DNA from: Gemmatimonadota bacterium
GTDB taxonomy: Bacteria > Gemmatimonadota > Gemmatimonadetes > Palauibacterales > Palauibacteraceae
Direction of reading: 5' to 3'
NCBI GenBank assembly: GCA_965116475.1
Contig: OZ220691.1
Location: forward strand, 1,824,001-1,888,000
Length of the DNA: 64,000 nucleotides
Of this stretch, positions 25,499 through 34,095 are shown piece after piece (position 1 is the stretch's first letter; each line of letters starts with the position of its first letter). The translations under genes and the position numbers were made by a program. The notes under the pieces were generated by a model. That model was not told the DNA's origin. It saw only the letters and a list, made by a program, of their open reading frames with translations, and ran no database searches.

Positions 25499-26725
25499 AT
25501 GCTGCGCAGATTGCTGTTCGGATCCAGTCTCAGGATCATCGCCGTGATCGTTGTCGGTACGGTTGCGGTCACGGCGCTCATGCTCTCGCTGGCCCCCGAG
25601 CCGGAGAGCCAGGAGCCGCCTCCCCAGATCCCGTTTGCGCAAACCGCCAGTGTGGTGGCCGGGTCCGGCGCGATACCCGTATTCGGATCCGGCACCGTGC
25701 GGCCAAGCGAGGAGATCGACGTCGCGCCGCAGGTGGGCGGCAAGGTCGTCTGGGTGAATCCCCGGTTCCAGAGCGGAGGGCGCGTGGAGGCGGGCCAGAC
25801 GCTGTTCCGCATCGAAGAGGCGGACTACGCGTACCGCGTGCAGGAAGCGGAGGCCAACGTCGCCGCAAGCCGGGTCGCCTTCCTCCAGGAACGGGAGCAG
25901 GCGGCGATCGCCAGCGCCCAGTATGAACTGTACGCGGAGCGGCGCGGGTCCGGGAATCCGTCGTCCGAGGCGAGTCCGCTCACCCTCCGGGAGCCTCAGC
26001 TGGACGCGGCCGGCGCCGCACTGAGCCGTGACGAAGCTCGTCTTGAGGAGGCGAACCTCGCACTCTCCAGGACGCGGGTCACCGCGCCGTTCGATGGATT
26101 CGTACGCGAGGAATCGGTCGATGCAGGGCAGGTCGTAAGTCCCGGACAGCCCGTCGGGCGCCTCTTCGCGTCGGCGGCGGTGGAAGTCGTCGTGCCCCTC
26201 TCCGATGCCGATGCCGCCCTGATCCCCGGATTGTGGGGACTCGAGGCGGGTGACGGGGCGCGGGACGTGGCGGCTCGCGTGATCGCCCGGTACGGGGACG
26301 TGACGTACTCGTGGGATGGGTACGTGGATCGTGGCGAGAATTCCGTCGACGCGCAGACCCGCACCATCGATGTCATCGTGCGCGTGCCGGATCCGTTCGA
26401 GGCAAGCGTGGCGGCGGGCCAGTCCGGCGCCGTCGGGGGTGACCCTCCGCTGCTGGTCGGCAAGTTCGTGGAAGTGGAAATCGAAGGCCTCTCACCGGAG
26501 GGCTACTTCCGGATCCCGCGAGCGGCGCTTCAGCCCGGAAACGAAGTCTGGACGGTGGGGAACGATGGGGTCGTGAGCATCGTTCCGGTACAGGCGCTGC
26601 AACGCGCCAACGACACGGTGTTCGTCACCGGGGCCCTTCGGGGTGGCCAGGCGGTGATCACCGGCGGCGTTCAGTTCGCCACCGAAGGCATGCGCGTCCA
26701 GACGGCGAGCGGCTCCTCCCGGTGA
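25499..26725 (+). CDS. RND efflux periplasmic adaptor (MFP)
   Basis: N-terminal TM, APQVGGKVV, TRVTAPFDGFV, VDAQTRT and LLVGKFVEVEIEG. Confidence 0.9.
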   Translation: MLRRLLFGSSLRIIAVIVVGTVAVTALMLSLAPEPESQEPPPQIPFAQTASVVAGSGAIPVFGSGTVRPSEEIDVAPQVGGKVVWVNPRFQSGGRVEAGQTLFRIEEADYAYRVQEAEANVAASRVAFLQEREQAAIASAQYELYAERRGSGNPSSEASPLTLREPQLDAAGAALSRDEARLEEANLALSRTRVTAPFDGFVREESVDAGQVVSPGQPVGRLFASAAVEVVVPLSDADAALIPGLWGLEAGDGARDVAARVIARYGDVTYSWDGYVDRGENSVDAQTRTIDVIVRVPDPFEASVAAGQSGAVGGDPPLLVGKFVEVEIEGLSPEGYFRIPRAALQPGNEVWTVGNDGVVSIVPVQALQRANDTVFVTGALRGGQAVITGGVQFATEGMRVQTASGSSR

Positions 26726-26735
26726 GCACCACGCC

Positions 26736-33037: not shown

Positions 33038-33060
33038 CAGCCCGTGGCAAACCCCGCTGC

Positions 33061-34095
33061 CTAGGAGTCCGGGCTTCGAGTCACCAGCGCCGGGTCCGGA
33101 TAGAACTGTCGGCAGTGTCGGCGGTATTTCCCGATCGGGCCGTCCGTCCGGCACAGTCGGGGGGGAGACCGGTAGCGCTTCCGGTCCCATATCACGATGT
33201 CCTGAAGGACGAACCGCCTCTCTTCGCGGAGGATGAAGTAGTTCAGCACCCGGTGGCGCAGCGGCACGGGCAGGAAGCCCAGACCCGATATGAACCGCCC
33301 CGGTTTGCGGATCTCCCGGACCTGATTGACCATCGTCAACTCCACGTATTCGCCGTCGACCGGCGTTGTGAGCACCCACATGCGCGACTTTATGCCGACC
33401 GTTTTTTCGTGAATCTCGACGAAGGAGTAGCCGAGTCCGTGGACGTGCGTGATGACCGAGACTTCGGAGTGAATGTCCACCAGACCCAGGATCCGGCGAA
33501 CGGCCTTGAAGTCGAAGCAGCTCTTCAGGTAGGCGCCATCGACCAGGAAGTCGGTCGGCTCCACGTCGTGGTACCCGTGCGTGTACTCCAGGTGCTCCAC
33601 GTCCACGGAGTTTTCCGTCGTCTCCTGGGGATGCCCTCGAAACCGCAGCTTGCAGGACCGAAGTCCGGTCCACTCCGCTCCGGTGGCAGGTGCATCCGGC
33701 AGGTGCCACTGAGGCGCCCGGCCGCCGCTCCCCCACCAGGCGAAGATCATGCCGAGGATCTCGCGGGTCTCGTAGAGCTTCAGCCTCGCGGCCTTCGGGG
33801 GCGGGGCATTGGGCGTGGCCACGCACTGTCCGGAGGTGTCGAACTCGAACCCGTGGAAGGGACAGACGAGACAGCCGTCGCGCACGAGGCCGCCGGCGGC
33901 CGGTCCCATGTGCGAGCCCAGGTGCGGACAGAAGGCGTCGGCCACGCAGATGCGGCCCTCGTCGTCGGCCCAGGCGACGATTTCCTCGCCCATCCACGTC
34001 TTTTCGATGAGCGTCGCGCGCTCGATGGAGTCGCGGATCCCGATGAAATACCAGCCTTCGGGAAACGGCGGCAGCGCGTCGCTGTGCGTAGTCAT
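33061..34095 (-). CDS. Rieske non-heme iron oxygenase, Neverland/DAF-36 (sterol 7-desaturase) / KshA-like
   Basis: PPFPEGWY; Rieske CPHLG...CPFHG; iron motif ENSVDVEHLEYTH; C-terminal QDIVIWDRK.Y..PP.L...DGPIGKYRR...QFY. Confidence 0.85.
   Translation of the reverse strand: MTTHSDALPPFPEGWYFIGIRDSIERATLIEKTWMGEEIVAWADDEGRICVADAFCPHLGSHMGPAAGGLVRDGCLVCPFHGFEFDTSGQCVATPNAPPPKAARLKLYETREILGMIFAWWGSGGRAPQWHLPDAPATGAEWTGLRSCKLRFRGHPQETTENSVDVEHLEYTHGYHDVEPTDFLVDGAYLKSCFDFKAVRRILGLVDIHSEVSVITHVHGLGYSFVEIHEKTVGIKSRMWVLTTPVDGEYVELTMVNQVREIRKPGRFISGLGFLPVPLRHRVLNYFILREERRFVLQDIVIWDRKRYRSPPRLCRTDGPIGKYRRHCRQFYPDPALVTRSPDS

Follow-up and report, generated by a model that had tools for sequence, protein, structure and literature searches.

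A block of five genes at positions 25499-34095 of a 64-kb stretch of contig OZ220691.1 (hereafter the window, all 64,000 nucleotides of it) encodes a membrane fusion protein (MFP), a resistance-nodulation-division (RND) pump, a cytochrome P450 with an N-terminal GPP34 domain, a divergent member of the sterol methyltransferase (SMT) family and a Rieske oxygenase. The block is more than a chance neighbourhood, because its genes stay linked in 80 loci from 12 named bacterial phyla despite varying order and orientation. It is a horizontally shared module that, in our moderately confident judgement, would modify and export sterol-like lipids, in other words a probable sterol-tailoring and export cassette. 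The parts are known separately, and what is new is their combination and the subfamily of the methyltransferase, here called SMT2.

The source genome is that of a Candidatus Palauibacter-like Gemmatimonadota. Its GPP34-P450 protein is 93% identical to Candidatus Palauibacter proteins and, among the 120 matches listed, many of the named homologues of this protein come from Gemmatimonadota. The order Palauibacterales corresponds to the PAUC43f group, found in sponges, corals, marine sediments and saline soils (PMC10469786). Here and below, statements on publications refer to the available portions of their text; in that of PMC10469786, the terms sterol, squalene, hopanoid and P450 have no occurrence.

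Layout of the Five-Gene Block

The genes of the block are the following, the two domains of the fusion protein being given separately.

25499-26725, plus strand: MFP, RND periplasmic adaptor (membrane fusion protein), 408 aa
26736-29930, plus strand: RND pump, AcrB/HAE1-type, inner-membrane, 1064 aa
29937-31994, plus strand: GPP34-P450 fusion ("GPP34_L"), 685 aa from a TTG start
30003-30608, plus strand: GPP34 (GOLPH3-like) domain, fusion residues 23-224
30699-31949, plus strand: cytochrome P450 domain, fusion residues 255-671
32006-33037, plus strand: SMT-family C-methyltransferase of the divergent SMT2 subfamily, 343 aa
33061-34095, minus strand: KshA_C-type Rieske non-heme iron oxygenase, 344 aa, convergent on the SMT gene

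All five open reading frames (ORFs) are intact. The MFP, RND, fusion and SMT genes lie on one strand, with gaps of 10 bp (MFP/RND), 6 bp (RND/fusion, or 30 bp with an ATG start of the fusion) and 11 bp (fusion/SMT), and the SMT and Rieske genes converge, their stop codons being separated by 23 bp. The spacing of the four co-oriented genes resembles that of an operon. The initial annotation had described this co-orientation, the short gaps and the convergent Rieske gene, and the ORF coordinates agree with it; the five gene families that it named were also recovered, at the family level, with Pfam and NCBIfam. An alternative ATG at 29961 would give a fusion protein of 677 aa, the length of most homologues, and is likely to be the true start.

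The flanking genes have unrelated functions, a Big_2/leishmanolysin-like protein upstream and a GH116-like protein downstream (Pfam). Because both flanks are found again in two related Gemmatimonadota loci (L020 and L001), the module occupies a conserved chromosomal site. The G+C content is 0.635-0.665 in the cassette versus mostly 0.69-0.73 in adjoining segments, and about 0.69 across the whole window. A promoter consensus scan returned 0 sites, and terminator-like sites were not above chance (3 found versus 4.4 expected). A tandem 12-nt direct repeat is present at 25402-25425, about 75-95 bp upstream of the MFP start; both copies contain GATTGA and the second extends into TTGACA. This repeat is a possible operator or -35 element of a promoter, and the consensus scan detected no full promoter site there.

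Linkage of the Genes Across Bacterial Phyla

One genome per GTDB species was scanned with an alignment of 28 SMT sequences. At least 600 stretches matched, of which 435 proved to be relatives. The 80 best of these 435 (67-89% identity), from 12 named phyla and 7 unassigned records, form the set of loci used below. Neighbours were counted within 10 kb of the SMT gene. Full flanks are available for 67 of the 80 loci, whereas 13 are shorter than the full 21 kb. Counts are given for all loci and then for those with full flanks.

GPP34-P450 fusion near SMT: 68/80 all loci, 57/67 full-flank
KshA_C-type Rieske near SMT: 66/80 all loci, 57/67 full-flank
Fusion and Rieske both near SMT: 61/80 all loci, 52/67 full-flank
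AcrB-type RND pump near SMT: 32/80 all loci, 29/67 full-flank
Sterol-sensing-domain/MMPL RND near SMT: 30/80 all loci, 28/67 full-flank
Either pump type near SMT: 62/80 all loci, 57/67 full-flank
FAD amine-oxidase-like protein near SMT: 38/80 all loci, 30/67 full-flank

The initial annotation had staked its proposal on the co-location of these genes in related genomes, and this co-location is strong, for the fusion (68/80) and the Rieske enzyme (66/80) as well as for RND pumps (62/80). The SMT and P450 genes are a median of 68.5 bp apart. Gene order and orientation vary among the loci: the exact order of the window, RND then fusion then SMT, occurs in 22 of the 80 and is followed by a convergent Rieske gene in 19 of these 22, directly adjacent in 5. 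The nature of the pump varies as well. AcrB-type pumps occur in Gemmatimonadota, Acidobacteriota, Latescibacterota, Rhodothermota and some Pseudomonadota, and pumps of the sterol-sensing-domain type in phyla such as Chloroflexota, Thermodesulfobacteriota and Binatota. No AcrB-type pump accompanies the sterol-sensing-domain/MMPL transporter in 28 of the 30 loci that have the latter.

The FAD amine-oxidase-like gene (about 464 aa) lies between the SMT and Rieske genes in L002, L014, L033, L039 and others, and is absent from the window. The only match of its product among solved structures is LkcE (106.8 bits). Two further ORF clusters, c8 and c25, were discarded as antisense shadows of the amine-oxidase and sterol-sensing-domain transporter genes. 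In one protein (P0181, 477 aa), the last 50 positions of KshA_C run in frame into a full SMT2, which may reflect a read-through or fusion of the Rieske and SMT genes or else an artefact of gene calling.

SMT2, a Divergent Subfamily Within the SMT Family

The window SMT matches Pfam Sterol_MT_C (PF08498) with 55.9 bits (cut-off 21.7) at residues 287-343, and also matches the class I methyltransferase domains CMAS and Methyltransf_11. Regions I to III follow the definitions of a recent preprint, whose quoted motifs also served to infer the yeast numbering (10.64898/2025.12.19.695621). The DxGxGxxGP motif of Region II, which binds S-adenosylmethionine (SAM), is present as VVDVGCGIGGP and the equivalent of Glu195 in Region III as YAIESTCHA; the D, G, G, G and P of the former and the Glu of the latter are invariant in the 28-sequence alignment. 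Sterol_MT_C, the SAM-binding Region II and the equivalents of His90, Phe91 and Glu195 are thus shared with ERG6/SMT1.

Region I differs. It reads FMVYGWGESLHF in the window clade versus DFYEFGWGQSFHF in the canonical SMT of the same loci, to which the window SMT is 36-40% identical. Tyr81, Glu82 and Phe89 of ERG6/SMT1 are replaced by Met, Val and Leu (Tyr81Met, Glu82Val, Phe89Leu), and these replacements are invariant in the clade. Hence, instead of 84-GWGxxFHF-91 preceded by Tyr or Phe at position 81, the window protein has M-V-Y-GWGESLHF, with Met81 and Leu89. According to the preprint, every SMT with methylating activity on desmosterol or 24-methylenecholesterol keeps 84-GWGxxFHF-91, and position 81 influences sequential methylation (10.64898/2025.12.19.695621).

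An exhaustive search of 1.84 billion cluster representatives retrieved 9643 proteins at E <=0.001, and Region I was readable in 93 of the best 150. Phe89 occurs in 82 of these 93 and Tyr81 in 78. The combination of Met81 and Leu89 occurs in 9, which are exactly those at 50-72% identity to the window SMT, all the remaining representatives with a readable motif being at 48% identity or less. Because the Met81/Leu89 pair coincides exactly with the matches at 50% identity or more, SMT2 is, as judged from these alignments, a discrete subfamily with intact SAM-binding and catalytic residues and an altered sterol-binding region. The PDB search gave no informative SMT structure, the best matches being unrelated small-molecule methyltransferases.

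The GPP34-P450 Fusion and the Rieske Oxygenase

GPP34 (103.6 bits, cut-off 29.1) and P450 (117.1 bits) domains are joined in one uninterrupted ORF (Pfam). Both PF05719 and PF00067 are carried by all 120 homologues among the matches listed (67-98% identity), and the heme Cys and the Glu and Arg of EXXR are kept in 69/69 aligned fusions. The match of the GPP34 domain to human GOLPH3 is weak (19.3 bits, GOLPH3 residues 42-159). The residues that form the phosphatidylinositol 4-phosphate (PI4P) pocket of GOLPH3 are, we assume, Trp81, Arg90, Arg171 and Arg174. In this weak alignment, a Trp sits two residues off the Trp81 position and the position of Arg90 is not basic. An assignment of the P450 to CYP51 was rejected: the match to the best solved CYP51 scores 72.3 bits, and the CYP51-like P450 of a Binatia locus (L065) shares 25% identity with the window P450 across 247 residues. 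That locus has two GPP34-P450 paralogues (3020-5035 and 11120-13129), 42% and 31% identical to the window protein. Across loci, the fusion falls into three identity classes (about 73-92%, 54-70% and 37-42%).

The same architecture was described in a study of sponge symbionts as GPP34_L: 656 of 663 long-form proteins combine GPP34 and P450, all come from sponge-symbiont genomes, and the long form occurs in 92.6% of 54 sponge-associated Gemmatimonadota (PMC11706023). The GPP34-P450 architecture is reported there as restricted to sponge symbionts of many phyla, and PI4P binding and evasion of phagocytosis were proposed (PMC11706023). As published, GPP34_L thus has a domain architecture identical to that of the window fusion, whereas its reading differs and is made without the linkage to SMT, Rieske and RND genes seen here. 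In the available text, "sterol", "lipid" and "methyltransferase" do not occur, and flanking genes are reported for the short form only. Rare GPP34-Rieske fusions are also noted in that study (PMC11706023), which fits a role shared with the linked Rieske enzyme.

The Rieske protein is recognized by the Pfam models Rieske (56.5 bits) and KshA_C (81.6 bits). With the Rieske CxH...CxxH and mononuclear-iron DxxHxxxxH motifs as we take them to be defined, all ligands are present (C56-P-H58, C78-P-F-H81, D165...H168...H173). Among 70 aligned homologues, the motif Asp is conserved in 66, and every Cys/His ligand, like each of the two motif His, in 65. KshA (4qdc, 83.3 bits) is the best solved relative, for residues 10-173 only. 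The nearest ESM Atlas clusters include some auto-named "cholesterol 7-desaturase" (17 of 30 matches in that family set), which is a lead only. The initial label "Neverland-like" therefore holds at the level of the KshA_C-type Rieske superfamily and goes no further with Pfam, 4qdc or the ESM Atlas. The Rieske and KshA_C architecture and the metal ligands are shared with KshA and with Neverland/DAF-36; the window protein is unlike KshA in the span of the match and in that no reductase partner adjoins its gene. SdmA was considered and rejected (NF052579, 36.5 bits versus a cut-off of 600; 23% identity to the SdmA-like protein of L025), and the window-type Rieske enzyme co-occurs with an SdmA-like protein in L025 and L065.

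The Pump and Its Adaptor

The MFP is identified by HlyD_3 (Pfam, 49.2 bits) and TIGR01730 RND_mfp (NCBIfam, 159.5 bits versus a cut-off of 94.9), and the pump by ACR_tran (Pfam, 527.9 bits, residues 23-1046). Among solved structures, the pump is closest to multidrug efflux pumps of the AcrB/MexB/MdtB type (up to 250 bits). Of the tripartite HAE1 RND set, the permease and the adjacent MFP are present in the window. AcrB-type RND pumps with an MFP are exporters, not importers. The initial annotation had offered uptake as well as export of sterols, and the uptake part conflicts with this established behaviour of RND/MFP systems. The window pump is 83-91% identical to SMT-adjacent pumps of Gemmatimonadota, Acidobacteriota, Latescibacterota and Rhodothermota; it therefore travels with the module. 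Orthologues of the MFP (49-75% identity) stand beside the pump in 18 loci with a loose threshold and in 16/80 with a stricter one.

In two Longimicrobiales loci otherwise devoid of an MFP, remnants of its C-terminus (24-31 residues) lie just upstream of the RND gene (L014, 4166-4237; L039, 4558-4650), which suggests recombination breakpoints within the module. A gammaproteobacterial locus (L070) has a complete OEP-MFP-RND set beside the module and, about 2.4 kb upstream of the Rieske gene, a gene of the sodium/bile-acid symporter family (SBF, 4784-5659).

The alternative pumps of other loci match HAE3/MMPL models best; their scores with HpnN models (64.5-105.1 bits) and with BstA (38.4 bits) are far below the cut-offs. 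For RND-family proteins that traffic sterols to the outer membrane, BstA of Methylococcus capsulatus sets a precedent (PMC10942540). The resemblance of the window to the BstABC system of sterol transport and to HpnN hopanoid transport lies in an inner-membrane transporter of the RND superfamily whose gene neighbours lipid-modifying genes and which is proposed to move a polycyclic lipid outward (PMC10942540). Unlike the HpnN/BstA type, the window pump is of the AcrB/HAE1 type with an MFP, whereas in other phyla it is an HpnN-like transporter with a sterol-sensing domain that occurs within 10 kb (30/80 loci).

Horizontal Transfer of the Module

The window pump is 90% and the window SMT 87-89% identical to Acidobacteriota copies. 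In the locus of the closest relative (L020), the flanks are 74-85% identical to those of the window, yet the pump is only 70% and the fusion 63-64% identical. A maximum-likelihood tree built from 46 SMTs places 6 Acidobacteriota sequences, as one clade, inside a set of 14 that also comprises 7 Gemmatimonadota sequences and the window SMT. Forcing the Gemmatimonadota SMTs together is rejected (delta lnL 311.8, p-AU 0.0001), for a group that was named after the first tree had been seen. The SMT tree thus conflicts with taxonomy. Together with the closeness of the pump and the SMT to Acidobacteriota copies, the contrast with L020 and the slightly lower G+C content of the cassette, this conflict indicates that the module is exchanged horizontally among at least a dozen bacterial phyla. 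The carriers are typically bacteria with sponge- or coral-associated records and published relatives.

De Novo Sterol Genes and the Possible Source of a Sterol Substrate

In 4 of the 80 loci, one from Binatia (L065) and three from Nitrospirales (L025, L029, L024), the module is contiguous with a cluster for de novo sterol synthesis. In L065 and L025, this cluster encodes a fused squalene epoxidase-oxidosqualene cyclase (SMO-OSC; Pfam SE and SQHop_cyclase, NCBIfam osq_cycl 710.7 bits), a CYP51-like P450, ERG4/ERG24, an SdmA-like Rieske protein (414.7 bits), an SdmB-like reductase (303.3 bits) and a canonical SMT. The gene order of L025 matches that of the "Nitrospira MAG" cluster (MAG, metagenome-assembled genome), in which two SMTs, 38.8% and 35.6% identical to ERG6, are reported (PMC10070321, supplementary file 1). 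The window SMT corresponds to the second, more distant one (35.6%).

No cyclase, epoxidase, CYP51, ERG24 or SdmA/B gene was detected in the window. Pfam finds no squalene epoxidase or cyclase domain in the 40 ORFs scanned, and tblastn with SMO-OSC, CYP51-like P450, ERG24, SdmA-like and SdmB-like proteins gave no match in its six frames; the earlier remark that no oxidosqualene cyclase or squalene epoxidase is encoded there is thus confirmed. A search for homologues of the L065 SMO-OSC gave 788 matches at E <=1e-30. Among the best 120 of these, 8 are named (Nitrospira, Acidimicrobiia, Rhodospirillales, "bacterium" and "uncultured bacterium") and none of the 8 is from Gemmatimonadota. In published work on 537 Ircinia MAGs, 115 contained ERG24-CYP51-LSS clusters; these 115 belong to 10 phyla, Gemmatimonadota among them, the clusters show horizontal transfer, and SMT genes are enriched (PMC9531527). 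Because sponge-associated Gemmatimonadota with sterol clusters are thus on record, the absence of oxidosqualene cyclase and squalene epoxidase from 64 kb says little.

A gammaproteobacterial sterol cluster has also been described (PMC7074536), and bacterial SMTs, symbiont ones included, were shown to be active (PMC10070321). The sterol clusters of sponge symbionts (SMO-OSC, CYP51, ERG24, SdmA/B, SMT) resemble the module in the ecological set of phyla, in the pattern of horizontal transfer and in having an SMT-family enzyme (PMC10070321, PMC9531527, PMC7074536). They differ from the window, which is without cyclase, epoxidase, 14-demethylase, reductase and SdmA/B; moreover, their CYP51, SdmA and SMT are distinct from the window P450, Rieske enzyme and SMT2 (36-40% identity).

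A sterol is most likely the substrate of the module, and also its most economical reading, because the module adjoins de novo sterol genes in these 4 of 80 loci, because pumps of other phyla have a sterol-sensing domain and because the Rieske enzyme is of the KshA_C type. The initial annotation had proposed an exogenous (host or dietary) sterol, which is a possible source but no more than that for this genome; for most carriers, we lean slightly toward a host-derived or community-derived sterol.

Proposed Role and Alternative Explanations

The core of the proposed cassette consists of three enzymes, SMT2, the Rieske oxygenase of the KshA/Neverland superfamily and the P450 with its N-terminal GPP34 domain, which would form a tailoring line located at the cytoplasmic membrane. 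The enzymes look active, with metal ligands, SAM-binding residues and Region III residues kept. We infer a reaction order and a regiochemistry in which the Rieske enzyme and the P450 would introduce hydroxyl groups or double bonds into the nucleus or the side chain of the sterol by means of housekeeping ferredoxin and reductase, while SMT2 would move a methyl group from SAM onto a side-chain double bond, possibly one created by the oxygenases. GPP34 would be a peripheral lipid or membrane anchor placing the soluble P450 at the cytoplasmic membrane. The MFP and the AcrB-type pump, presumably co-transcribed, would then carry the product from the inner membrane toward the outer membrane or the outside.

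Several observations weigh against this scheme. As many as 76 of the 80 loci, and the window itself, have no de novo sterol gene within 10 kb, and the fusion and the Rieske gene are absent within 10 kb in 12 and 14 of the 80 loci, respectively. The best solved relatives of the P450 are chains named Cytochrome P450 51, which are only distant (72.3 bits), and the P450 receives no informative family name, either from NCBIfam or from the ESM Atlas, where generic "cytochrome P450" clusters are returned. Because SMT2 departs from 84-GWGxxFHF-91, it may not accept desmosterol or 24-methylenecholesterol. Alkylation at C24, which the initial annotation gave as an example, is at most a possible activity of so divergent an SMT. 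No ferredoxin or reductase partner was found in the 64-kb window. No outer-membrane factor adjoins the cassette; the nearest OEP gene is at 16853-18232 on the minus strand, and an OEP gene is adjacent in 9/80 related loci. Finally, binning errors or foreign contigs in MAGs could inflate the spread over phyla.

Three other explanations have to be considered. The module could tailor a non-sterol isoprenoid or another lipid (for example a hopanoid, another triterpenoid or an unsaturated chain), SMT2 having acquired a new class of substrate. In its favour are Met81 and Leu89 in Region I, where Tyr81 (78/93) and Phe89 (82/93) prevail and where SMT2 also differs from all SMTs reported active in the preprint (10.64898/2025.12.19.695621), the lack of oxidosqualene cyclase and squalene epoxidase in the window, and alternative pumps that resemble HAE3/MMPL rather than HpnN or BstA. 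It is nevertheless improbable in view of the Sterol_MT_C domain and the H90, F91 and E195 equivalents of SMT2, of the KshA_C type of the Rieske enzyme, and of the 4 loci in which the module adjoins oxidosqualene-cyclase clusters, not clusters with squalene-hopene cyclase only; in addition, no neighbour gene in the annotated loci indicates another lipid pathway. Degradation of host sterols as a carbon source, by a KshA-like ring hydroxylase and a side-chain P450, is very improbable. KshA of steroid catabolism is indeed the closest solved relative of the Rieske enzyme, and cholesterol side-chain degradation in actinobacteria begins with P450s. Yet the match to KshA is limited to the N-terminal 164 residues, our reading of the Pfam-scanned neighbours, in the window and in the other loci inspected, found no family for steroid ring cleavage, KstD, beta-oxidation or Mce-type uptake, and a SAM-dependent C-methyltransferase with an efflux pump suits biosynthesis and export, not catabolism.

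The third explanation starts from the fusion protein. GPP34_L would be a PI4P-binding, eukaryote-like effector directed against phagosome maturation, its neighbours being unrelated or serving the manipulation of the host. The solid Pfam match to GPP34 (103.6 bits) and the published restriction of the long form to sponge symbionts, Gemmatimonadota prominently among them, speak for it (PMC11706023). Against it stand the tight linkage of the fusion to SMT (68/80 loci, median 68.5 bp) and the fact that the published proposal, in its available text, leaves out sterols, lipids and methyltransferases and gives flanking genes for the short form only. The N-terminus of the fusion, as read from its sequence, has no hydrophobic signal-like stretch. 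The position of Arg90 is not basic, a point made uncertain by the 19.3-bit GOLPH3 alignment and by a role of Arg90 in PI4P binding that we presume. A heme P450 also depends on cytoplasmic redox partners. An effector is thus quite unlikely, a little more so than the tailoring of a non-sterol lipid.

Within the sterol-tailoring and export reading, a more specific version can be formulated, which we regard as possible with a low probability. SMT2 would be a sterol side-chain methyltransferase of new specificity, which might act on an oxygenase-made olefin of host sterols or at a position different from C-24, such as C-26; symbionts of a dozen phyla would convert and export sterols of the host or of the community, and GPP34 would be an anchor, not a PI4P-directed effector. 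A C-26 methyltransferase has been named as still undiscovered (PMC10070321).

Novelty and Significance

The linkage of SMT, GPP34-P450, Rieske and pump genes was not found in the literature searched, which includes few subscription journals. The initial annotation had held the architecture to be undescribed; this stands for the linkage and not for the components, the GPP34-P450 fusion (PMC11706023) and symbiont SMTs and sterol clusters (PMC10070321, PMC9531527) being in print.

Steranes alkylated on the side chain, such as 24-isopropylcholestane and 26-methylstigmastane, are the oldest chemical traces taken as evidence for animals. It is actively debated whether bacteria can make the precursors of these steranes (PMC10070321). 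Here, an atypical SMT subfamily accompanies two oxygenases and an exporter in a gene set that symbionts share very widely. If SMT2 had the new specificity considered above, the unconventional alkylated sterols of sponges would be products of the module, and part of the "sponge biomarker" chemistry would move to bacteria that make no sterols. Should the substrate turn out to be a host sterol, these symbioses would have the remodelling of sterols as a general trait. The module also offers a testable biochemical role for GPP34-P450, a recently flagged hallmark of sponge symbiosis that was read without reference to lipids (PMC11706023).

Other Features of the Window

Rfam and tRNA scans gave no match of any kind in the 64-kb window, which thus shows no rRNA or tRNA gene. 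An AbiEi/AbiEii type IV toxin-antitoxin (abortive infection) pair is found at 105-1567. At 3944-7415, IetA (AAA ATPase, 396 bits) and IetS (subtilase, 1121 bits), an anti-phage/anti-plasmid defence pair, are located inside an island of lower G+C content (0.57-0.60, about 4-12.5 kb). The same island holds, at 8295-9023 and 10069-12379, a ThiF/E1-like protein with a weak match to the PADLOC E1-E2 models and, near it, a NotI-family restriction endonuclease and a C5 cytosine methylase. Downstream of the cassette, at 41562-42263, a bacterial member of the TMEM164 family is encoded (Pfam, 174 bits), a family known mainly from eukaryotes.

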